A stretch of DNA of 11,287 bases from Candidatus Eiseniibacteriota bacterium (GTDB lineage: Bacteria > Joyebacterota > Joyebacteria > Joyebacterales > Joyebacteraceae), in assembly GCA_043819135.1 (NCBI GenBank), contig JBDRFG010000169.1:1-11287 (forward strand), read 5' to 3'. The notes beneath the pieces were generated by a model. It did not search any database. It saw nothing but the letters and a program-made list of their open reading frames with translations, and was not told the DNA's origin. Shown here piece by piece: positions 1,479 to 10,329 of the stretch. Every line of letters begins with the position of its first letter. Positions within the stretch are counted from its first letter, which is position 1. Position numbers and translations under genes: made by a program.

Positions 1479-2708
1479 CTATCTATAGAGAGCCTTCACC
1501 GACCCCCATGTCCTGTCTTCGACGGGAGTCGTGTACCCGCCGATCGTCACGACGTAGGAACGTCCGCAGTCCACCGGCACCCAGCTCCAGGAGCCGACCC
1601 ACAACCAGTAGGTGCCCGGGTCGAGGGCGTAGGTCTCGCAGGCGACGTCGCACGGTGGACCCGTCAGGCTGTAGAGGAGCGGGTAGTCGAAGCAGTCGTC
1701 CAGTTCCTGGAGTATCAGGAGCTGGTAATCGAAACCCGCCATTATACAGAAGTCGATCTCCCTCGGCTCGTCGAGCACGAGTTCGAACCAGTCCGTGTCC
1801 CTGTAGCACATCCCCGTGTACGGGTAGACACCGGTTTCGCCGCACAAGACGATGTACTCCGCCGGATCAAGGTCGCTGAAGACCGAAGGATACGAGTTGC
1901 ATCCGCCGTTGTAGCCGTCGTAGTACTCGGGACCGCAGGACGGCTCTTCCTCAAGCACCGAACCCATCGGACAGGGCGCGGCGCAGTCCGGCGCGGCGTG
2001 GAATCCGTCGAGCGTCATGATGTACTCGACCCCGCAGGGTATGCCCGAGAACACCGTGGGAACGACGACGAACCAGTAGGTCCCCGGGGAAAGCGTGTGC
2101 TGCATGATTCCTTCCTCACACTCCGGCACCTCAAGCATCTCCAGAATCGTGTAGGCGCCACAGCCGCCCGTGCCGTCGATGAGAAACATTAGCAGAGGGA
2201 ACTCGCCGATGGTCGTCCACGTGATGATCGTCTGCTGAGTTATCTCCATCTCGTACCAGTCGGTGTCCCTGTAGTCGCCTCCACCGTACAGGTAGGTCCC
2301 GCTGGTGGCGCAGACGGAGATCAGACCGTAGGAAGGAAGGAGGGTCTCGAACACGTAGGGGGTCGAGTTACAGCCGCCGTTGTACGAGTCGACGAACTCG
2401 TCCACGCACACGGGCTCGCCCTCGAAGTACGAACACGGCGAGCACTGAAGGTCGCACGCGCGGCCGGAGAACTCGTAGAACGGGTCGCTCTCGTGCCCCG
2501 GGGGAGCCGTCGTGCCAAGGCCGGCCTGCCTGAGTTCGAGCCTGGCGGCCTCGTCGCAGGAGCCCGGGTACTCGTGCCTGGGGAGTGTAACGCGCGCGGT
2601 GGGGTTGGCCGGACCGAGAGGAATGCTGCCTTCCTCTGCCAGCACCGGCTCGACCGCCAACACCGAGATGGCCACAACAAGAACCACGGCAATCACAGCC
2701 CGTCTCAT
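1479..2708 (-). CDS. Secreted Cys-rich protein (409 aa) with two tandem ~150-aa PPC-like domains and a C-terminal WGxxK tail
   Basis: GGAGGAG RBS at 2718-2712; signal peptide MRRAVIAVVLVVAISVLAVEPVLA; duplicated motifs EPxC, YNGGCNS, YRDTDW[YF]E, L[SD]PGTYW; ends TPVEDRTWGSVKALYR. The PPC-like call rests only on the DxDW[YF] and LxPGTY motifs. Confidence 0.85.
   Translation of the reverse strand: MRRAVIAVVLVVAISVLAVEPVLAEEGSIPLGPANPTARVTLPRHEYPGSCDEAARLELRQAGLGTTAPPGHESDPFYEFSGRACDLQCSPCSYFEGEPVCVDEFVDSYNGGCNSTPYVFETLLPSYGLISVCATSGTYLYGGGDYRDTDWYEMEITQQTIITWTTIGEFPLLMFLIDGTGGCGAYTILEMLEVPECEEGIMQHTLSPGTYWFVVVPTVFSGIPCGVEYIMTLDGFHAAPDCAAPCPMGSVLEEEPSCGPEYYDGYNGGCNSYPSVFSDLDPAEYIVLCGETGVYPYTGMCYRDTDWFELVLDEPREIDFCIMAGFDYQLLILQELDDCFDYPLLYSLTGPPCDVACETYALDPGTYWLWVGSWSWVPVDCGRSYVVTIGGYTTPVEDRTWGSVKALYR
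1533..2456 (-). repeat. Intragenic tandem domain duplication (aa ~85-236, nt 2456-2001; aa ~242-392, nt 1985-1533)
   Basis: DSYNGGCNSTPYVF / DGYNGGCNSYPSVF, YRDTDWYE / YRDTDWFE, LSPGTYW / LDPGTYW, CGVEYIMTLDGF / CGRSYVVTIGGY; most cysteines at equivalent positions. Confidence 0.9.
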
Positions 2709-2823
2709 CTGCTCCTCCGTTTCGTCTCAGGCCCGATGGCCGGGCCGGCTGTCCGGACTCCGCTGTTCGTCAGCCAGCCTGGATGCAACCGTTCGTGCGC
2801 ATGCCAGGACGGCCCAATGAGCA

Positions 2824-2852
2824 CAACTATCACAGCAACGGACCACGGGCAA
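2824..2852 (-). promoter_or_regulatory. Weak candidate sigma70 promoter for the 409-aa gene
   Basis: TTGCCC-17 nt-TAGTTG with a TG upstream of the -10; the last T of the -10 is missing. Confidence 0.3.
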
Positions 2853-2895
2853 GCCCAAAATGGGGCCGGCTCACTCACGCGCCCGTACGTGCGGA

Positions 2896-2919
2896 GAGGC
2901 CGCCCGCTCGGGCGGCCTC
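2896..2919. terminator. Perfect 10-bp hairpin, possible end of the sigma/anti-sigma transcript
   Basis: gaggccgccc-gctc-gggcggcctc; no U-tract on either side. Confidence 0.35.
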
Positions 2920-3081
2920 CCATTCCTGCAGCGAGTATCTGCGAAATACGTGTCTGCCAGGCGTCAGCCGCAGCCCGCCGCGGCACGATCCTCAACCGCT
3001 CCAGCCAGATCGGGCTCCGCCCGCCCGCGCGCGTCCACCCACCTCACCTGCCCGCCGGTCCCCGGTCGGTCTCCACACCCG

Positions 3082-3690
3082 CTAGTTCCCAAGGCTCCCA
3101 TCACCCGGACGCCGCTCGACCGCCGGCCATGACTCGTCAGTCGCAAGAATGATCTGCGGCTGCTCGATGGCCGAGTCGAAACTCTCGGGTCTGAGCGTAT
3201 CGGAAGCGTTGGCCGCGTACTGCGCCATCTCGCGCGGGACGCCGCTCTCAACGAGCGACTTACTTCGCGGCGAAACGACGGGCCCTCTGTCATCGATCGG
3301 ACGCTCTGCAAACGTCCCGGGATCTGATACCCCTGCGATGTTGAGGACCGGCTGCAGGCCGACCCCCAGTCCGATACCAAACAGGAGGACCGCGGCAACA
3401 ATGGGGCCGAGTCTGGGGGCGAGATTCTCAAGACGCGGAACGAAGACGAAGCGCCGGCCGCTGTCGCGGAGCTTCGCTCTCAGACCAGCTTCGAAGCGGG
3501 TCCAGTAGAACGGCTCCGGCTCGACATAGCCGTCGTCCTCAAGGAAGGTCATGGTCCGCTCGAACGCGGCGAGTTCCGAGGCGCAGACGTCACAGGTCGC
3601 GAGGTGCTGACGCACCGCTTCCTGCTCGCCCGCCTCGAGTTCTTCTTCCATGAACTCCACGAGTCTCTTCTGTGCCTCGTCGCAACGCAT
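3082..3690 (-). CDS. Zinc-binding anti-sigma factor (zf-HC2/ZAS type) with one TM helix
   Basis: N-terminal MRC...EEEL...HLATCDVC (HxxxCxxC); hydrophobic segment PIVAAVLLFGIGLGVGL; starts 2 nt after the ECF sigma stop. Confidence 0.9.
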   Translation of the reverse strand: MRCDEAQKRLVEFMEEELEAGEQEAVRQHLATCDVCASELAAFERTMTFLEDDGYVEPEPFYWTRFEAGLRAKLRDSGRRFVFVPRLENLAPRLGPIVAAVLLFGIGLGVGLQPVLNIAGVSDPGTFAERPIDDRGPVVSPRSKSLVESGVPREMAQYAANASDTLRPESFDSAIEQPQIILATDESWPAVERRPGDGSLGN

Positions 3691-3692
3691 GT

Positions 3693-4271
3693 CTATCTCA
3701 GATCTCCCAGAAGCTTCCGCAGTTTCCTGATCGCGTGGAAGTAGTTGGCCTTCGACGTTCCCTCGGAACAGCCCACGACTTCCGCGATCTCCTTGTGACT
3801 CAACTCTTCGTAGAACTTCAGGATGAAGACGGCCCGCTGCTTATCCGGGAGCGTCTTCACCGCCTGCCTCACTCTTTCAGCGATCTCCGATCCCATGGCG
3901 GCGCGAGCGGGGTCGGAGCGGGGGTTCCGGTCGGGCCGGATCATGTCCCCCAGCGGAATCATCTGCCTGAACTTGTCCCGCTTGAGCTTGTTGAGCGCAA
4001 TGTTGACCGTGATCCTGTACATCCAGGTGTACAGGCTCGAGCGCCCTTCGAAGCGAGCAATGTGCCGGTGGACTTTGATGAAGGCTTCCTGCGCGGCGTC
4101 CTCAGCGCTCTCATCGTCGCGCAGTATGCGCCAGGCGACCCGATAGAGTCTCTCTCGATAGGTCCCGACGAGCTCTTCGAAGGCCTGTTCATCCCCTGCC
4201 TTCAGACGCTCGAGGAGCTGAACCGTGTCCTCCCGAGTCTGCCCGCTTCTCCCGCTCACTTTGTCTGACAC
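3693..4271 (-). CDS. ECF-family RNA polymerase sigma factor
   Basis: Region 2 GDEQAFEELV..YRERLY..AEDAAQEAFIK..FEGRSSLYTWMYRITVN; region 4 LPDKQRAVFILK..EELSHKEIAEVVGCSEGT. GTG start at 4271 is uncertain. Confidence 0.95.
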   Translation of the reverse strand: MSDKVSGRSGQTREDTVQLLERLKAGDEQAFEELVGTYRERLYRVAWRILRDDESAEDAAQEAFIKVHRHIARFEGRSSLYTWMYRITVNIALNKLKRDKFRQMIPLGDMIRPDRNPRSDPARAAMGSEIAERVRQAVKTLPDKQRAVFILKFYEELSHKEIAEVVGCSEGTSKANYFHAIRKLRKLLGDLR

Positions 4272-4354
4272 GGTCGCCCATCACCTGGTTTAGTCGCGAA
4301 AATCGGCCGTACACGGCGCTTTTCGGGCTCCCGGAGCCCCCTCAGCGCCCGGCC

Positions 4355-4383
4355 AAGCTATGACACAGGCGCCCGGCTGTCAA
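4355..4383 (-). promoter_or_regulatory. Sigma70-type promoter for the ECF sigma/anti-sigma operon
   Basis: TTGACA (4383-4378)-17 nt-TAGCTT (4360-4355), just downstream of the upstream gene's terminator. Confidence 0.65.
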
Positions 4384-4420
4384 TGGTCCACTTCCGTGAC
4401 GGGCGCCCGCTCTCATCGCT

Positions 4421-4467
4421 GGGACAAGAAGAGGCCGGATGGGGTTGCACCCTGTCCGGCCTCTTCT
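4421..4467 (-). terminator. Intrinsic terminator after the 566-aa gene
   Basis: 13-bp inverted repeat agaagaggccgga 4427-4439 / tccggcctcttct 4455-4467; minus-strand tail TTCTTGTCCC. Confidence 0.8.
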
Positions 4468-4522
4468 GCGATCAGGTCCTCGGCCGGCCCGCCATCGATC
4501 CGAGCCGCCTCAGACACCACAG

Positions 4523-6223
4523 CTAGTCTCTTCTGTAGAGGCTCTTGATCTGGCCCCAGCTCATCGGCTCGATGCTGATGCCGGGCACGGTCTCGCACCA
4601 GTTCCACAGATCCTCGAGCACCATAGGACCAGCGCGGAGAGCCATGCATCCGTCGACGTCGTCGAGCGTCAGGTTCCTGTTCGGAAGCACGTCGCACTCG
4701 TAAGTCCCGGTCGTGTCCGAATCGGCGCAGAAATACTTGTACTGGAGGAACTTGTACGTGCCGGTCGGGAACAGGACCTCGGCGCTGTAGATGCCGTCAC
4801 TCGCCGTGACATCACCGCCCGTGCCGTCGTCGAGAAGCTCGACGCCAGTCGACCAGTCGAGCGGAAGCGCGGTGCCGCGAACGAACAGCCCGCTGGCGCA
4901 GGCCGGCGAGTCGTGAACCTGGAACAGCACTCCCACGTCGCACGCGATGTTGTCGACCGGAGCGACGTCATTCCACCAAACGTTGACCACCTGACTGGCG
5001 GCGTTCGGGTCGAGCGTCACGAAGTGACCGAAGTCGAAGTCACCCTCCCAGGTCAAGCAGTCGACCACGTACTTGTACTTGACCTGCGTCGACTCGGCGG
5101 AAGCGCCGCACGTGTAGTGCATGGTGAAGTACTCGGTCACCGCGTAGGTCGAGTCGCCGCCGGCGTCCAGGGTCTCGGCTCCGCCGCAAAGGTCCCACGT
5201 GAGCGGGTACGTGTCGCCCTGGACGTGCAGGCTCGTCGGTACGCCGTTGGCGTCGATGTAGAGACTCATGTTGATCTCGAAGTCGACCCTGTGGAGATAG
5301 AAGCACGCGGTGTTGGCAGTCGGGTCAACCGGGGTCGAGGCGAGGTCGGTGACGCCCGTCACCGTCACGGTGTAATCGTAGCCCTCTGTCAGTGCCGTCG
5401 TCAGATCGAGGTGCACGAGGCTGGCGTTCGACCCGTCGAGAGTGGCAGTCGCGACCGTGTAGGGGCCGCTCGGGCCGCCCGTGATGGCGTAGTTCGCCTC
5501 GGTCTCTGCCGAGACCTGCTCGACGTCCTTCGAGAACCGCACGGACAGAAGACCGGCCGCGGTCCCGTCGTAGTCGATAGGCGCGCTGATCACCGTGGGC
5601 GCGGCGGCCGTGATGATCTCGGTCGTGTTGGTCGCCATGTAGTACTTGAAGGTCACGGGGTTGACGCCGTCCGAACCGAACGGGATATTGGCCGGAGACG
5701 TGTTCTGCTGCCAGTTGTTGTTCAGAACGATCTTGCACTCGTAGCTGCCCGTCGGGATGACGGAGCTGAACTCCCACACGTCATCGAGATCGCCGTCCGA
5801 CATGACGGTCGTGCTCGTGTCGGTCTGGTCCCAGTCGCTGCCGCCGAGGGTGCTCTGCAAGGTACCGCAAACGATGGGCGGGTTCAGGCTGTGGAAGACG
5901 TACTCGTCGCCCTGCTTCGTTCCCGGAACCGCGCCGAGGTTGACGAAGAACGTCACGTTCTCCGGCGTCGCCGGCGTGAACGCCTGATTGGGGTCCGGGG
6001 GGAAGGCCTCACCCCACGCGTCACCGTCGATGGCCTTGTACTCGTGCAGAGAATCGCCGGCCGCGATGGTCAGCACGTAGACGCCGTTGCCGTTCAGTGT
6101 GAGCTCGGACGCGGGGTCCGCGGGATCCCATCCCTGGAAGTTCCCCGCGATACTCGGCAGTGCCAGAGCAGCACCGGGAACGAGCAGCATGGCCAGAGCC
6201 ATTGTCGCTGCAAAGAGCTTCAT
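4523..6223 (-). CDS. Secreted multimodular putative alpha-glucan-binding protein (566 aa): SP, X25-like x2, Ig-like, CBM20-like x2, WGxxK tail
   Basis: GGAGG RBS 6234-6230; signal peptide to ~A21; X25-like SIAGNFQGWDP..NGVY..EYKA and VCGTLQS..DWD..MSDGDLDDVW..IPTGSYECKIVLNNNW..NI..VTFKY; Ig-like SVRFSKDV..ANYAI..YTVTVTGVTD; CBM20-like LHVQG..PLTW..KYKY..TWE and LFVRG..PLDW..QYKY..YE..NR; ends ISIEPMSWGQIKSLYRRD. No catalytic domain recognised. Confidence 0.85.
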   Translation of the reverse strand: MKLFAATMALAMLLVPGAALALPSIAGNFQGWDPADPASELTLNGNGVYVLTIAAGDSLHEYKAIDGDAWGEAFPPDPNQAFTPATPENVTFFVNLGAVPGTKQGDEYVFHSLNPPIVCGTLQSTLGGSDWDQTDTSTTVMSDGDLDDVWEFSSVIPTGSYECKIVLNNNWQQNTSPANIPFGSDGVNPVTFKYYMATNTTEIITAAAPTVISAPIDYDGTAAGLLSVRFSKDVEQVSAETEANYAITGGPSGPYTVATATLDGSNASLVHLDLTTALTEGYDYTVTVTGVTDLASTPVDPTANTACFYLHRVDFEINMSLYIDANGVPTSLHVQGDTYPLTWDLCGGAETLDAGGDSTYAVTEYFTMHYTCGASAESTQVKYKYVVDCLTWEGDFDFGHFVTLDPNAASQVVNVWWNDVAPVDNIACDVGVLFQVHDSPACASGLFVRGTALPLDWSTGVELLDDGTGGDVTASDGIYSAEVLFPTGTYKFLQYKYFCADSDTTGTYECDVLPNRNLTLDDVDGCMALRAGPMVLEDLWNWCETVPGISIEPMSWGQIKSLYRRD

Positions 6224-6314
6224 GTCTTGCCTCCCTCTCCCCTTCCCGAGGAGTACAACGTCCAGTCACCGGGGGCCGCCAAGGCCCCTTCGTCGCACAT
6301 CCGGAGTCGCGCAC

Positions 6315-6382
6315 CAGGCCCCGACGCCCCTGCGCCGGGGCCTGATGAGTGGCGTGTCATGCTCGATCGGTCAGGCCCCGGC
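6315..6382. repeat. Three-arm inverted repeat between the 335-aa and 566-aa genes
   Basis: gccggggcctga 6334-6345 is the exact reverse complement of tcaggccccggc 6371-6382 and also pairs over 9 bp with caggccccg 6315-6323. Confidence 0.8.
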
Positions 6383-7389
6383 TACCTGTATATCGACTTG
6401 ATGGTGCCCCAGCTCGTGTCCTCGACGGGGCTCGAGCAGTCCGGGCACTCGGTCGCCAGGTACTCCCAGACGTCGGGCGCCAGGATCTGTGTGGGCGCCG
6501 AATCGTCAATGCTGAAGCTGTGGTTCCACGTGCTCTCCCACGTCTGGCAGTCGTCCTTCTTGTACTTGTACTCGACGAACGGGTCGCTGCCAGCCGGGAA
6601 CATCACGTCGACACTCCAGAGCTTCGGCTGAACTAACGGGCAAGGCTGTGCCATCTGGATGCCGAAACCCCAGCTCGTCAGCGACGGGTGACTGCCCGTG
6701 ACGCAGACGTCGAAGAAGCTGTCGATGCTGTCGGGCAGGCACACGGTGAACGTCACCGTGACGTCCTGCTGCGTCACGACCTGCGTCGAGACGGCCGTCT
6801 CGTTGTTGGACATGTCGTAGGAGAAGGTGATGGGGTTAATGCCGTCGGAGGCAAACGAGATGTTGTCCCCCGTGCTCTGGTCCCAGTTGTTGTTCAGGAC
6901 GACCTTGCACTGGTAGTCACCCGCGGGGGCGACGACGCCCGTGAGCTCCCAGATGCCGTCGTTGTCGCCGTCGGACATTACGGTGTTGACAGGGTCACCC
7001 GCGTCCCAGTCGGCGCCGCCGAACTCGCTCTGCATATCGCCGGCCACGATAGGAGGATTCATGCCGTGGAAGACGAACTCGTCGCCTTCTTTGACGCCAA
7101 CGTTGGCGCCGAGGTTGACGAACCACGTCACGTCGTCGTCGACCGCCAGCGTGAAGCTCTGGTCGACGCCGGGGAAGTCAAGACCCCATGCGTCGCCATC
7201 GACTGCCTTATACTCATAGAATCCGGCAAGAAGCGACTTCGTCAGCTCGTAGACACCGTTGCCGTTGACCGTGAGGTCGTAGGCCGGGTCGGCCGGTTCC
7301 CATCCCTGCATGCTGCCCACAATGCTCGGGCCGGCCAGAGCGTACGCCGGTATCACGAGCGCTATCACCACCGCCGCAATGAGTCTCAT
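6382..7389 (-). CDS. Secreted putative alpha-glucan-binding protein (335 aa): SP, X25-like x2, CBM20-like, WGxxK tail
   Basis: Start moved to ATG 7389 (GAGGAG upstream; signal peptide MRLIAAVVIALVIPAYALA). First ~200 aa are paralogous to 4523-6223. CBM20-like DVTVTFTV..VCVTGSHPSLTSW..LWSVDVMFPAG..VEYKY..TWE..NH..DVW; ends SPVEDTSWGTIKSIYR. Confidence 0.88.
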   Translation of the reverse strand: MRLIAAVVIALVIPAYALAGPSIVGSMQGWEPADPAYDLTVNGNGVYELTKSLLAGFYEYKAVDGDAWGLDFPGVDQSFTLAVDDDVTWFVNLGANVGVKEGDEFVFHGMNPPIVAGDMQSEFGGADWDAGDPVNTVMSDGDNDGIWELTGVVAPAGDYQCKVVLNNNWDQSTGDNISFASDGINPITFSYDMSNNETAVSTQVVTQQDVTVTFTVCLPDSIDSFFDVCVTGSHPSLTSWGFGIQMAQPCPLVQPKLWSVDVMFPAGSDPFVEYKYKKDDCQTWESTWNHSFSIDDSAPTQILAPDVWEYLATECPDCSSPVEDTSWGTIKSIYR

Positions 7390-7632
7390 TCTCTTCTCCT
7401 CTCGGGCTCCCGCACTGCCTGAGGCCGCGGGAAACCAGGTTGCGAGACCCTGGCCACTCGGTGTCCGGGTGGCCTCCGTTGCTGTTACACCCAATCATCC
7501 TGCTGCAGCACCGCTCTGTTGCGCGAAGCCGCTGTTTCGCTCGCCCCGCGATCCATACCCGATTGCAAGTCCAGGGCCATCCGAAGCCGCCCTCCCAGCA
7601 GAAGAGCCGACGGGTGCGGTTCGCCAGCAGAC

Positions 7633-7661
7633 ACTATATCACAATTCAGTCCAGATGTCAA
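7633..7661 (-). promoter_or_regulatory. Near-consensus sigma70 promoter with extended -10
   Basis: TTGACA (7661-7656)-17 nt-TATAGT (7638-7633), preceded by TGTGa; AT-rich island in GC-rich DNA. Confidence 0.85.
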
Positions 7662-7794
7662 TGCGGCAGGTGCCCGCCAGCCTGCTGAGCGGTCGTGGAC
7701 CTCCCGCGCGCAACATCACGGCCGCAGGCTCCACCGCACACACTTTTCTGATGTAGGCAGGAGTGGGCGGTCGCGCGTCGGACGCTCAGCGGCA

Positions 7795-7831
7795 GGACAC
7801 AAAGGCGCGGCCCCTGAGTCGAGGCCGCGCC
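7795..7831 (-). terminator. Intrinsic terminator after the 272-aa gene
   Basis: ggcgcggcc 7804-7812 / ggccgcgcc 7823-7831; minus-strand tail TTTGTGTCC. Confidence 0.7.
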
Positions 7832-7882
7832 CTGTTGTGTCGTTCTCTGCGCCGGGAGATCGTGTCTCTCCCGTGGATCGGA

Positions 7883-8701
7883 CTACCTGTACAGCGCCTT
7901 CACCGTGCCCCAGCTGGCGTCCTCGACCGGCGAGCCACACTCGACACAGTCGGCTACGCCCCAGCACCAGGCGTCCTGTGCCAGGGTCTGCGACGCGCCG
8001 GAGTCATCGATCACGAACGCGTGGTTCGGGTCGCAGTCCCAAAGCGAGCAGTCATCCTTCTGGTACTTGTACTGGACGTAGGGATTCGAGCCGGCGTTGA
8101 ACTGAATGGTGACCTCGTAGAGGTTCGGGCTCACGGCGGGACACGGCTGCCCCATGTAGACGCCGGGCTGGCTCCACGCGGTCAGTTCGGCGGCACTACC
8201 CGTCACGCAGACGTCGCCGGCCGAACCTTCCGGAATGCAGAGCTGGAACGTGACCAGAACGTCCTGCGCGGTCACCTCGGTGATCGGCAGTAAGAAGTTC
8301 GGGTCGTTGCCGTTCTGGTCCTGCGGATACAGCGTCTCGTTGTCCTCGGCGTCGACGACCTCGACGTAGAACTCGACCTCGGTGCAGCCGTGCGTGTTCG
8401 GGATCGTCGCGCTGAACTCATCGTTGCCCCCGTTTATGCCGAAGTAGGGCATCGGGAGCGACGTGAATGTGAGGTCGCCGGTGCAGCGGTAGTTCAACGT
8501 CGCCGAGAGGTCCGCGCAGGGACCGGCGGCGCCGGTACATCCGTCCTTCCAGACCTGTACGTACACGGCGATGTTGTCGTTCGACGTGTAGCCCGTGCCG
8601 TTGACTGGCCAGATGTTGCCGGCCCAGCCGATGTTGCCCATCGCCGTCGATGCCAACGCAACGAGGAGCACAGCTGCTACGATGCTCGCAAATCTGTTCA
8701 T
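7883..8701 (-). CDS. Secreted putative alpha-glucan-binding protein (272 aa): SP, amylopullulanase-type accessory domain, CBM20-like, WGxxK tail
   Basis: Start moved to ATG 8701 (AAGGGGAGGG upstream; signal peptide MNRFASIVAAVLLVALASTAMG). IGWAGN..VYVQVWKDG..GGNDEF domain; CBM20-like VTF..VCVTG..LTAW..QYKY..W..NH..DAW; ends SPVEDASWGTVKALYR. Confidence 0.88.
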   Translation of the reverse strand: MNRFASIVAAVLLVALASTAMGNIGWAGNIWPVNGTGYTSNDNIAVYVQVWKDGCTGAAGPCADLSATLNYRCTGDLTFTSLPMPYFGINGGNDEFSATIPNTHGCTEVEFYVEVVDAEDNETLYPQDQNGNDPNFLLPITEVTAQDVLVTFQLCIPEGSAGDVCVTGSAAELTAWSQPGVYMGQPCPAVSPNLYEVTIQFNAGSNPYVQYKYQKDDCSLWDCDPNHAFVIDDSGASQTLAQDAWCWGVADCVECGSPVEDASWGTVKALYR

Positions 8702-8818
8702 CTTACCCTCCCCTTTTCTGGGCGGCCCCGCGGGGCGCCCGCACGAAACCTCGCGGACGAGCGCCGACTGCTGCGAGCCGGTCCGCCGGTCCACGGTGAA
8801 CTGCTTGATTCGTTGAGT

Positions 8819-8847
8819 ATTATAGCACAAGAACCAAAATGTGTCAA
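8819..8847 (-). promoter_or_regulatory. Perfect-consensus sigma70 promoter with extended -10
   Basis: TTGACA (8847-8842)-17 nt-TATAAT (8824-8819), preceded by TGTGc. Confidence 0.92.
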
Positions 8848-8981
8848 TTCGTCGTGACCCTCGCAGGACCCCGCTGCGGCAGGATGGGCGGTTCCCGGAC
8901 GGGGAACCCCCGGGCCCGCGATCGGTCTGAGCGGGACCGCCCCGGCTGCCGGTCGAGACGGTTCGTCACGAGACCGGCGGT

Positions 8982-9026
8982 GGGACACAAGACTGAGCGG
9001 CACCACCCCGCGGGGCAGCGCCGCTC
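8982..9026 (-). terminator. Terminator-like hairpin after the 274-aa gene
   Basis: Minus-strand RNA GAGCGGCGCUGCCC-loop-GGGUGGUGCCGCUC (14 bp including G-U pairs, so strand-specific), then AGTCTTGTGTCCC. Confidence 0.65.
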
Positions 9027-9052
9027 CGAATCACGCCCGGATCCTGCTTCCC

Positions 9053-9078
9053 GGCGAGTCTACCTGGCGAGTCTACCT
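9053..9078. repeat. Perfect 13-bp tandem duplication covering the last codon and stop of the 274-aa gene
   Basis: ggcgagtctacct at 9053-9065 and 9066-9078. Confidence 0.9.
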
Positions 9079-9897
9079 GTAGAGAGCCTTGACCGTCCCC
9101 CACGTCGACTCCTCGACCGGCGTCTCGCAGTCGGGGCAGTCGGCCGTCTGGAACTCCCAGCTGTCGAGCGCCAGGTCCATCGTAGCGCCGGCGTCGTCTA
9201 TGGCGAAGGTGTGGTTGCCAGTGCCTTCCCACGTCGTGCACGCGTCCTTCCGGAACTTGTACTGCACCGAGGGATTGCTGCCGGCCGCGAACAGCACGTC
9301 GACGACGAACATCCTCGGGCTGACGCCCGGGCACTCCTGCTCCATGACTACACCGCTTCCCCAACTGGTCAGCTCGGCGTGGTTCCCCGTCACGCATATC
9401 TCGCCCGAGCTTTCGACGGCGGTGGGGAGACACATGTGGAAGGTCACCGTGACGTCCTGTGCCGTCACCTCGGTGATGGGCAGCAGGAACGGCGGGTCGT
9501 TCGCGTTCTGATCCTGGCCCGAGCAGGTCGTCGTGTCCGAGAGGTCGGTGATGACGCAGTAGAAGTCCACCACCGCGCACCCGTGTCCGGAGGGGATGAT
9601 CCCGGTGTACTCGTCGTTGTTCCCGACGTCCGTGTTGTACGTCATCCCGATGTTCGTGTAGGCCGTGTCGCCCTGGCAGCGGAACATCAGCGCCGCCTCT
9701 ATGCCGACACCCTGTCCGGGCTGGTCCGTCACGCCCGCCTTCCATACCTGGACGTAGACGTCGATGTTGTCAACTGACGTGTAGCTCGCTCCGTTGACGG
9801 GCCAGACGTTCCCGCACCATCCAACGACGGCGCCGGCCGTAGCAGCTGAAGCGACGAGGACCGCTGCGACGATCAACACTGTGGCAATCGCCTTCAT
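9073..9897 (-). CDS. Secreted putative alpha-glucan-binding protein (274 aa), full-length paralog of 7883-8701
   Basis: Start at ATG 9897 (AGGTG upstream; signal peptide MKAIATVLIVAAVLVASAATAGA; 9918 is an alternative). VGWCGN..VYVQVWKAGVT..GQG..YNTDVGNNDEY domain; CBM20-like aa ~147-249; ends TPVEESTWGTVKALYR. Confidence 0.88.
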   Translation of the reverse strand: MKAIATVLIVAAVLVASAATAGAVVGWCGNVWPVNGASYTSVDNIDVYVQVWKAGVTDQPGQGVGIEAALMFRCQGDTAYTNIGMTYNTDVGNNDEYTGIIPSGHGCAVVDFYCVITDLSDTTTCSGQDQNANDPPFLLPITEVTAQDVTVTFHMCLPTAVESSGEICVTGNHAELTSWGSGVVMEQECPGVSPRMFVVDVLFAAGSNPSVQYKFRKDACTTWEGTGNHTFAIDDAGATMDLALDSWEFQTADCPDCETPVEESTWGTVKALYR

Positions 9898-9980
9898 GGG
9901 TCCCACCTGCCTTTCCATCTACCAGGGACGCCCCGCAGTTTGGCCACGCGAGCTCCCGGGGCCGGAGCGCTATCCACTGC

Positions 9981-10054: not shown

Positions 10055-10091
10055 AAAAAAGAGGAGGCGCGGCCACCTGAGTGGCCGCGCC
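10055..10091 (-). terminator. Rho-independent terminator of the tRNA pair
   Basis: ggcgcggccac-ctga-gtggccgcgcc (11-bp stem, 10066-10091) followed on the minus strand by TCCTCTTTTTT. Confidence 0.9.
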
Positions 10092-10107
10092 CCCATCGAC
10101 GTCCTTC

Positions 10108-10183
<76 letters not shown>

Positions 10184-10207: not shown

Positions 10208-10283
<76 letters not shown>

Positions 10284-10300: not shown

Positions 10301-10329
10301 ATACTAACAATGGAGACCCGCGATGTCAA
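10301..10329 (-). promoter_or_regulatory. Sigma70 promoter of the tRNA-Phe/tRNA-Thr pair
   Basis: TTGACA (10329-10324)-17 nt-TAGTAT (10306-10301) with TG extension, 17 nt upstream of tRNA-Phe. Confidence 0.85.

Follow-up and report, generated by a model that had tools for sequence, protein, structure and literature searches.

Introduction

Several systems are known in which unrelated secreted proteins carry a conserved C-terminal tag. In type IX secretion (T9SS), the type A C-terminal domain (CTD; TIGR04183/PF18962, here the FlgD_ig-like PF13860) is read by SprA-PorV and removed by PorU; it is a seven-stranded β-sandwich of 70 to 100 residues that follows unrelated passengers on signal-peptide proteins. 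Cargo with a type B CTD (TIGR04131/PF13585) stays on an outer-membrane carrier of the PorP/SprF type, and in the sections of Paillat et al. (2025, PMC12618676) and Lauber et al. (2024, PMC10994853) that deal with them, these CTDs are described as folded, with five conserved motifs and a cognate carrier gene that is usually adjacent. The LPXTG/sortase, PEP-CTERM/exosortase, and GlyGly-CTERM/rhombosortase systems also combine a signal peptide with a conserved C-terminal tag on diverse cargo, in a choice-of-anchor pattern, and dockerins (PF00404) are short C-terminal modules on many unrelated secreted enzymes and binding proteins. Here we describe a 17-residue tail that is shared by five secreted proteins encoded in an 11,287-nucleotide stretch of contig C169 (the window) from the genome of a Candidatus Eiseniibacteriota bacterium (2.69 Mb, 174 contigs).

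Like the type A CTD, this tail is C-terminal on signal-peptide proteins with unrelated passengers, and it is found in the same genomes and at the same paralogue junction; a further parallel, in pattern only, is a conserved Lys near a hydrophobic stretch and a final Arg or Lys. It differs from the type A CTD in its far smaller size, in its predicted flexibility, in having no match to the CTD hidden Markov models (none of 55 tail genes overlaps the 70 to 75 CTD matches), and in a motif that stands N-terminally or in tandem in one protein family. With type B CTDs and their carriers it shares a proposed logic only, namely, that cargo would be held by an outer-membrane carrier that fixes its final place. 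The genome encodes six PorV/PorQ-family barrels, compared with two needed by type A cargo, and unlike type B genes, only 2 of the 55 tail genes, both for NTF2-like lipoproteins, adjoin such a barrel. A Pfam search of the 55 tailed proteins gave no match to PF13585, and an NCBIfam search of the five window proteins gave no type B match. As in a dockerin-cohesin pair, binding of the tail would be noncovalent, and dockerin-like repeats take its place in homologues of one of the five window proteins (409 amino acids [aa]). Unlike a dockerin, the tail has no duplicated calcium-binding D-x-D motif and no Pfam match and is one quarter as long. In contrast to sortase, exosortase, and rhombosortase signals, it lacks a transmembrane helix and a basic cluster, and mostly 0 to 2 residues follow its Tyr. 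It also differs from the outer-membrane β-signal, the terminal aromatic residue (usually Phe) of a β-barrel, in that Arg or Lys is last in 38 of 41 tails and the tailed cargo has soluble β-sandwich or β-helix folds. The tail belongs with the C-terminal sorting or docking tags that occupy a choice-of-anchor slot, and its position and context suggest that it may be a secretion, anchoring, or docking signal.

A portable tail on unrelated secreted proteins

The window comprises nine genes, all on the minus strand: purD, the 409-aa gene, genes for a zf-HC2 anti-sigma factor and an extracytoplasmic function (ECF) sigma factor, the 566-, 335-, 272-, and 274-aa genes, and galE. The translated open reading frames (ORFs) placed five tails, of the pattern (P)VE-x-x-[ST]-W-G-x-[IV]-K-x-[LI]-Y-R, where a reading of this DNA from its letters alone (the sequence-only reading) had located them (Table 1), and PurD, GalE, the ECF sigma factor, and the anti-sigma factor have other C-terminal ends without the tail. 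The tail of the 566-aa protein is the most divergent of the five, with IE in place of VE and two additional residues past the Arg. All five proteins start with a basic and then hydrophobic stretch, as expected of the signal peptides that had been proposed; here and below, signal peptides were called with a simple hydrophobic-window heuristic and not with SignalP. The 566-, 335-, 272-, and 274-aa proteins are X25/CBM20 paralogues by Pfam and blastp. The 409-aa protein belongs to no family in Pfam or NCBIfam, and its blastp match to the other four is confined to its own last 14 to 54 residues, in agreement with the proposal that they share the tail and no domain. It is an internal duplication, each half of which consists of a Cys-rich C-x-x-C...EGEP.C...NGGCNS stretch followed by a PPC-like β-sandwich.

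The same ending recurs throughout the genome. The expression WG.[IVLM]K..[YFW] gave 53 matches when ORFs of 40 aa or more from all six frames were searched, compared with 0 to 1 per residue shuffle (n = 5). In 49 of the 53, the match lies no more than 6 residues from the stop codon, which leaves no space for a transmembrane helix and agrees with the sequence-only reading on this point. A 17-column profile derived from these matches (consensus, [GTA]-[ST]-P-V-E-x-x-[ST]-W-G-x-I-K-A-[LM]-Y-[RK]) found 61 ORFs whose tail lies no more than 15 residues from the stop, whereas just 2 copies in the genome are internal. Signal-peptide-like N termini were called for 52 of these 61 ORFs; the nine misses are three contig-edge fragments, two short ORFs, two with a hydrophobic start lacking Lys or Arg, and two with an unclear start. 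A Cys lies 6 to 14 residues upstream of the Trp in 37 of the 61 tails, and a CxxC motif is present in 12.

The tail behaves as a portable module on unrelated secreted cargo, as had been suggested from the window. Among 50 tailed proteins searched against Pfam, 24 matched about nine unrelated family groups, and 26 had no match. Most frequent were β-helix/NosD/PMP-repeat proteins (14), followed by pectate lyases and LTD domains (2 each) and by single cases of CARDB, GEVED, PD40, DUF7901, Laminin_G_3, and a weak DUF4440 match. Tailed proteins are small, with a median of 283 aa, compared with 780 aa for CTD proteins. A mini-protein encoded by a 64-aa ORF on the plus strand of contig C109 consists of a signal peptide, a stretch of some 25 residues that includes three Cys, the tail, and little else. 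No library model covers the tail in Pfam (55 tailed proteins) or NCBIfam (the five window proteins).

The tail takes the place of the type IX CTD

The strongest clue to the function of the tail, and one absent from the sequence-only reading, is its T9SS context. The genome contains 70 (TIGR04183) to 75 (FlgD_ig) CTD matches and a T9SS machinery made up of a porU-porV operon followed by an M6-like pseudo-protease gene, the six PorV/PorQ-family barrels, and sprA. Tail and CTD never occur in the same gene (0 of 55 tail genes and 0 of 76 CTD genes), and 23 of the 55 tailed proteins have a CTD-bearing paralogue at 1e-5. In the β-helix family, the common domain ends in ...SPCLP..NPWGE.IGA.G.GC. and is followed by either the tail or a linker and CTD; upon alignment, the tail begins exactly where the linker and CTD begin in the paralogues. 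A choice-of-anchor X domain is recognized by NCBIfam in the 566-aa protein. A search with the 409-aa protein found 590 homologues. Among the best 120, 71 end in the tail, and others have a T9SS CTD, dockerin-like D-x-D repeats, or another module at the C terminus. The domain of the 409-aa protein thus precedes tails, CTDs, or Planctomycetota-type dockerin repeats in its homologues. Up to about 14 extra residues past the motif are tolerated in these homologues.

Tail genes also lie next to CTD genes. A tail gene directly adjoins a CTD gene in 14 of 55 cases, compared with 2.9 ± 1.7 (maximum, 9) in 1,000 shuffles of the tail label among non-CTD genes, or about five times chance. Homology does not account for 14 of 15 adjacent tail-CTD pairs, whose members are nonhomologous, and two pairs are only 25 to 27 bp apart. 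CTD genes also cluster with one another (17 of 76), and therefore, the linkage may partly reflect general secretome islands. The two kinds of ending have a comparable layout: CTDs end in [RG]-K-[ML]-V-L-L-[RK], with Lys at position -6 in 55 of 75 and a final Arg or Lys in 72 of 75, and tails end in K-A-L-Y-[RK], where all 41 have Lys at position -5 and 38 of the 41 close with Arg or Lys. For type A CTDs, a Lys close to the C terminus is described by Lauber et al. (2024, PMC10994853) as near-invariant, functionally important, and in contact with PorV.

All 23 tag-bearing panel genomes had PorV-family matches, as did 4 of 5 further genomes with the tag. The only tested genome without one is a 6.7-Mb Gemmatimonadota metagenome-assembled genome (MAG) with a single tag, and every multi-tag genome tested has PorV-family genes. 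Five genomes that were first scored as tag free have 53 to 150 CTD matches and 6 to 10 PorV-family matches.

In light of this, we tentatively favor the view that the tail is a docking tag bound by a T9SS-linked outer-membrane component, by which small secreted proteins would reach the surface and stay there. The tail stands in the C-terminal slot where sister proteins have the CTD. On small secreted binding proteins and enzymes, it would be held, without cleavage, by a carrier or receptor belonging to the T9SS-linked machinery of the outer membrane, by analogy with the logic of type B CTDs that stay on PorP/SprF carriers. Such binding could provide export, surface retention, or both.

Several other loci were noted. 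A module consisting of a large outer-membrane barrel of the CarboxypepD_reg/Plug type followed by one or two PorV-family barrels recurs and is also present at C23:28531-35833 of the host genome; in genome G032 (C1:2418500-2429000), a tailed LTD protein is encoded directly before such a module, in which the CarboxypepD_reg-type barrel is accompanied by a PorV-like barrel and a lipoprotein. Orthologues of a PorQ-like barrel lie 2 to 3 kb from a second M6-like protein of about 1,100 to 1,200 aa in 15 of 21 panel genomes (in the neighboring phylum, for example, G069:C5:85456-89466 and G031:C1:741889-745934), which looks like a second PorQ/PorZ-type pair. A 1,272-aa C25 peptidase with a propeptide, its own FlgD_ig-type CTD, and weak PorU and PorU2 matches is encoded at C42:3487-9288; a fragment of a tail gene, located where the contig ends, is two genes away.

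Distribution of the tail

Species-representative genomes were scanned at the DNA level for P-V-E-x-x-[ST]-W-G-x-I-K-x-x-Y, with the stop codon left unspecified, and at least 127 matches were found in other species. In all 127 matches listed, the frame stops 0 to 7 codons past the Tyr, and in 104 it stops after exactly one further residue. The 80 records among the matches listed are MAGs of Candidatus Eisenbacteria/Eiseniibacteriota, Latescibacterota, Krumholzibacteriia, Effluviviaceae, and one Gemmatimonadota or are named just "bacterium." In the host phylum, each of 31 genomes examined had 21 to 81 strict-pattern matches, and a reversed control pattern had 0. In the neighboring phylum, to which the Latescibacterota and Krumholzibacteria MAGs belong, at least one strict match was present in 116 of the 121 genomes sampled (range, 0 to 76). 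The five genomes without one contain 9 to 52 tail-profile matches each; all 20 matches that were fetched from them are real C-terminal tails in variant form, such as ...SWGSIKALY-stop, SWSEVKALYR-stop, and DWGQVKSLYR-stop. Strict patterns therefore miss variant tails, and these five genomes were rejected as negative controls. The remark in the sequence-only reading that similar endings occur in uncultured phyla related to the Fibrobacteres-Chlorobi-Bacteroidetes group was thus borne out by the DNA-pattern scans.

When the tail profile was run against 1.84 billion cluster representatives, it gave 1,086 matches at an E value of ≤1e-3. For 147 of the best 150, no more than 4 residues separate the end of the match from the C terminus. 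Matches are thus almost always C-terminal and not confined to the paralogue cluster of the window. In their source records, homologues are assigned to Candidatus Eisenbacteria under the names "hypothetical protein" or "PorV/PorQ family protein." Literature searches found no paper for the motif strings of the tail and none for Eisenbacteria with type IX secretion. Among the matches listed, T9SS is not mentioned in the literature on these phyla, and PorU2 and PorV2 are not used as family names. With no family model and no paper found, the tail is not yet described.

Structure of the tail

In an AlphaFold2 model of the 409-aa protein built with 40 homologues, two confident β-sandwich domains (mean predicted local distance difference test [pLDDT] score, 87) are followed by a tail with pLDDT values of <50 at residues 397 to 401 and 404 to 409. 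The best Foldseek match was to ColG (5iku; E value, 2e-9), in its tandem domains for collagen binding, which are of the PPC type. Since the tail lies beyond the confident domains at such low values, it is not part of the cargo fold. None of the four outcomes that the sequence-only reading had named as speaking against a sorting or docking signal was observed: matches only within this paralogue cluster, matches that are internal or on proteins without signal peptides, a tail integral to the preceding domain, or an existing model that covers it.

An amphipathic helix had also been suggested for the tail. AlphaFold predicts a short, low-confidence helix over W-G-S-V-K-A-L-Y (residues 401 to 408). 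The hydrophobic moment of the tail core is 0.45 as a helix, equal to its value as a strand (0.45), and is reached by 28% of shuffles. The amphipathic-helix reading is plausible but weakly backed. Another candidate reading makes the tail a short helix of the interfacial kind, which would stick directly to the outer membrane, lipopolysaccharide, or another surface glycan, without a protein reader. The predicted helix is in its favor, Trp, Tyr, Lys, and Arg suit a membrane interface, tandem copies of the motif could provide avidity, and neighborhoods and profiling gave no reader gene (see below). We nevertheless regard this as very unlikely; the hydrophobic moment is unremarkable among shuffles, and ten residues are very short for stable membrane binding. 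Furthermore, the near-invariant W, G, and K, with P-V-E three residues upstream, are kept across phyla, which points to a specific protein site.

The invariant Lys and the Y-[RK] end, reminiscent of the C terminus of Lpp, might be read as signs of a periplasmic role, either as an Lpp-like peptidoglycan tether via the Lys or as a recognition tag for a protease or chaperone; the almost exclusively C-terminal position of the tag would suit this. The cargo is of an extracellular type, including CBM20/X25 starch-binding, pectate-lyase-like β-helix, and collagen-binding-like PPC domains, and homologues carry T9SS CTDs or dockerins instead of the tail. Lys is the last residue in only 4 of 41 tails, and the extensions past the motif that are tolerated in homologues of the 409-aa protein also speak against a periplasmic role, which we consider highly improbable.

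An NTF2-like lipoprotein family carries the motif at other positions

The three profile matches that are not C-terminal and several with multiple copies mostly belong to one family of NTF2-like lipoproteins; the exceptions are a read-through that spans two ORFs and an extension that looks like a frameshift. AlphaFold predicts an NTF2/SnoaL-like fold (domain pLDDT, >85), and Foldseek matched it to cystatin-like, ketosteroid-isomerase-like, and CaMKII-association-domain structures. The motif is found directly after the signal peptide and again at the C terminus (P0241, P0272, and P0299), behind both domains of a tandem pair (P0337 and C101:13991-15184 of the host genome), or four times in tandem at the C terminus (P0259), always on Gly/Ser/Pro-rich linkers. 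The host genome has four members at two loci (C101:13991-15855 and C33:31795-33235); two of the genes adjoin the PorQ-like barrel gene, and in two members the tail is degenerate (...TWGVLRGDYRG and ...VSFSELKSLFQ). All 26 tag-bearing genomes that were tested have the family, frequently as tandem arrays, and its tails range from canonical to degenerate or absent. The presence of the motif at either end and in tandem is unlike a signal that must be threaded from the C terminus and suggests that the motif behaves as a binding peptide.

These positions bring to mind a dockerin-like tag that would be held noncovalently by a dedicated surface receptor unrelated to the T9SS, with export by another route and with NTF2-like lipoproteins as the possible receptor or hub. 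In one version, the cone of the NTF2 fold could hold the tail helix, and the extra tails of the hub could join hubs to one another. Dockerin-like repeats occupy the same slot in homologues of the 409-aa protein, and it is only in the NTF2-like family that the motif is position independent and multivalent. The fold is a pocket-forming one, the family is present in all tag-bearing genomes tested, and two PilMNOPQ-type secretin systems in the host genome (pilC, pilins, pilM-N-O-P, and secretin, at C31:1-7401 and C74:38971-45753) could export the cargo. The predicted tail of the NTF2-like family has a pLDDT of about 78, compared with <50 to 61 for the PPC-type 409-aa protein, which hints at packing on the NTF2 cone, although pLDDT is the only measure of this packing. 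Against a dockerin-like tag, retention alone would allow a tail upstream of a cleavable CTD, an arrangement seen in 0 of 55 tailed proteins, and the sole internal copies in the host genome belong to the NTF2-like family or arise by chance. Moreover, carrying many tags does not make the NTF2-like protein the reader, and self-blastp of the 400 proteins that are 500 aa or longer revealed no internally repetitive, scaffoldin-like protein and no cohesin-like repeat scaffold such as that of a cellulosome. On balance, we consider a dockerin-like tag of this kind rather unlikely.

A further possibility is bolder. The tail could be the peptide half of an undescribed peptide-receptor docking system in Eisenbacteria and allied phyla, an uncleaved, position-independent, and multivalent tag by which dozens of small secreted proteins would be attached to outer-membrane hubs linked to a motor-less T9SS. 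The hubs would be NTF2-like lipoproteins or spare PorV-family barrels. This is conceivable but, in our estimate, quite unlikely.

Search for a reader

The view that the tail is a docking tag for a T9SS-linked outer-membrane component has to be weighed against a number of observations, which are collected here. According to the parts of Lauber et al. that concern the complex (PMC10994853), a type A CTD buries about 1,850 Å2 in the SprA-PorV pocket; with this area, the 17-residue tail is too small for that pocket and could not fill it. The N-terminal and tandem copies in the NTF2-like family do not fit an obligatorily C-terminal translocation signal. The similarity between CTD ends and tail ends is an analogy and not an alignment. 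Given the two PilMNOPQ-type secretin loci, export may take a type II-like route. Genome G031, which is complete, has 12 tails and 8 PorV-family genes, and not one of the tails is found less than 100 kb from any of these genes. In G032, 2 of 19 tails lie within 3 kb of such a gene, one of the two being that of the LTD protein noted above. Furthermore, no tag-free T9SS genome was found in the two phyla sampled, so that the cooccurrence of tag and T9SS is without a negative control there.

It is also of note that orthologue profiling, gene neighborhoods, and a scaffold search yielded no reader. The phylogenetic profiling that the sequence-only reading had called for turned up no cooccurring partner that tracks tag number. 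Four candidates were rejected. These are the PorQ-like barrel (C101:12373-13284), a PorV-family barrel (C23:29606-30577), its tandem duplicate at C23:28531-29595, whose own orthologue is found only in the host phylum, and the M6-like pseudo-protease beside porV. Their orthologues score equally well or better in low-tag genomes, and none of the four tracks tag number. The profiling left out the PorV-family barrels at C23:3409-4917 and C106:115791-116807 and the C25 peptidase on C42, and it had no power in the neighboring phylum, since the supposed negatives there carry tails. Among 186 non-cargo neighbors of tail genes, no recurrent family was seen beyond ATP-binding cassette transporters, tetratricopeptide repeat/kinase proteins, and GTPases, and no linked sorting-enzyme gene was found in these neighborhoods. 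The idea that low-tag genomes compensate with small CTD proteins was dropped: CTD frames of <450 aa make up about 16% here, compared with about 11% there.

Other features of the window

The genes for the ECF sigma factor and the zf-HC2 anti-sigma factor are 2 bp apart, amid the five tail genes (Table 1). This pair may regulate the tail genes, but three of these have their own sigma-70-like sites. The promoter-like sites come from a consensus scan only, which gave 5 in the window, compared with 1.2 expected from shuffles. A search of the window for sigma-54 promoters gave 10 matches, compared with 9 expected. A strong terminator-like hairpin follows the two tRNA genes.

Table 1. Positions of the tailed proteins, their tails, and other features in the window
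Feature	Positions	Strand	Description and basis
409-aa secreted protein	1479..2708	-	Signal peptide, two PPC/collagen-binding-like β-sandwich domains, tail; ORF, AlphaFold, Foldseek
Tail of 409-aa protein, TPVEDRTWGSVKALYR + stop codon	1479..1529	-	Tail profile, 30.2 bits
zf-HC2 anti-sigma factor	3082-3690	-	
ECF sigma factor	3693-4271	-	
566-aa secreted protein	4523..6223	-	Two X25, Big_5, choice-of-anchor X, weak CBM20 match, tail; Pfam, NCBIfam
Tail of 566-aa protein, ISIEPMSWGQIKSLYRRD + stop codon	4523..4579	-	Tail profile, 25.5 bits
335-aa secreted protein	6382..7389	-	Two X25 and a CBM20 domain; Pfam; frame open to 7494, probable start MRLIAAV at 7389
Tail of 335-aa protein, SPVEDTSWGTIKSIYR + stop codon	6382..6432	-	CPDC just before tail; profile match
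Sigma-70-type promoter-like site	7633..7661	-	11/12 matches, with TG; upstream of 335-aa gene
272-aa secreted CBM20 protein	7883..8701	-	ORF, Pfam; frame open to 8830, probable start MNRFAS
Tail of 272-aa protein, SPVEDASWGTVKALYR + stop codon	7883..7933	-	CVEC just before tail; profile match
Sigma-70-type promoter-like site	8819..8847	-	TTGACA, 17-nt spacer, TATAAT; 12/12 matches and extended TG; upstream of 272-aa gene
274-281-aa secreted CBM20 protein	9073..9918	-	Alternative starts at 9918 or MKAIAT (9897)
Tail of 274-aa protein, TPVEESTWGTVKALYR + stop codon	9073..9123	-	CPDC just before tail; profile match
Terminator-like hairpin	10063-10094		After the two tRNA genes
tRNA-Thr(CGT) and tRNA-Phe(GAA)	10108-10183 and 10208-10283	-	Between galE and 274-aa tail gene
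Sigma-70-type promoter-like site	10301..10329	-	10/12 matches, with TG; upstream of the tRNA pair preceding 274-aa gene

Conclusions

New in this work are the linkage statistics for tail and CTD genes, the parallel between CTD ends and tail ends, the multicopy NTF2-like family, and the warning that variant tails escape strict patterns. The tag is present on about 1 gene in 40 of these uncultured soil and sediment bacteria, and many of the tagged proteins bind carbohydrates or degrade polysaccharides. If the tag does serve as an address, it would delimit the surface proteome of entire phyla, improve secretome prediction for them, and offer a 17-residue handle for protein display. In that case, T9SS-type envelopes could work with a signal much smaller than the 80-residue domain known so far, or they would have a separate docking layer on top of it. 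Should the tail instead belong to a docking system with outer-membrane hubs, T9SS addresses would gain a third class, and Gram-negative bacteria would have a surface assembly that resembles a cellulosome.

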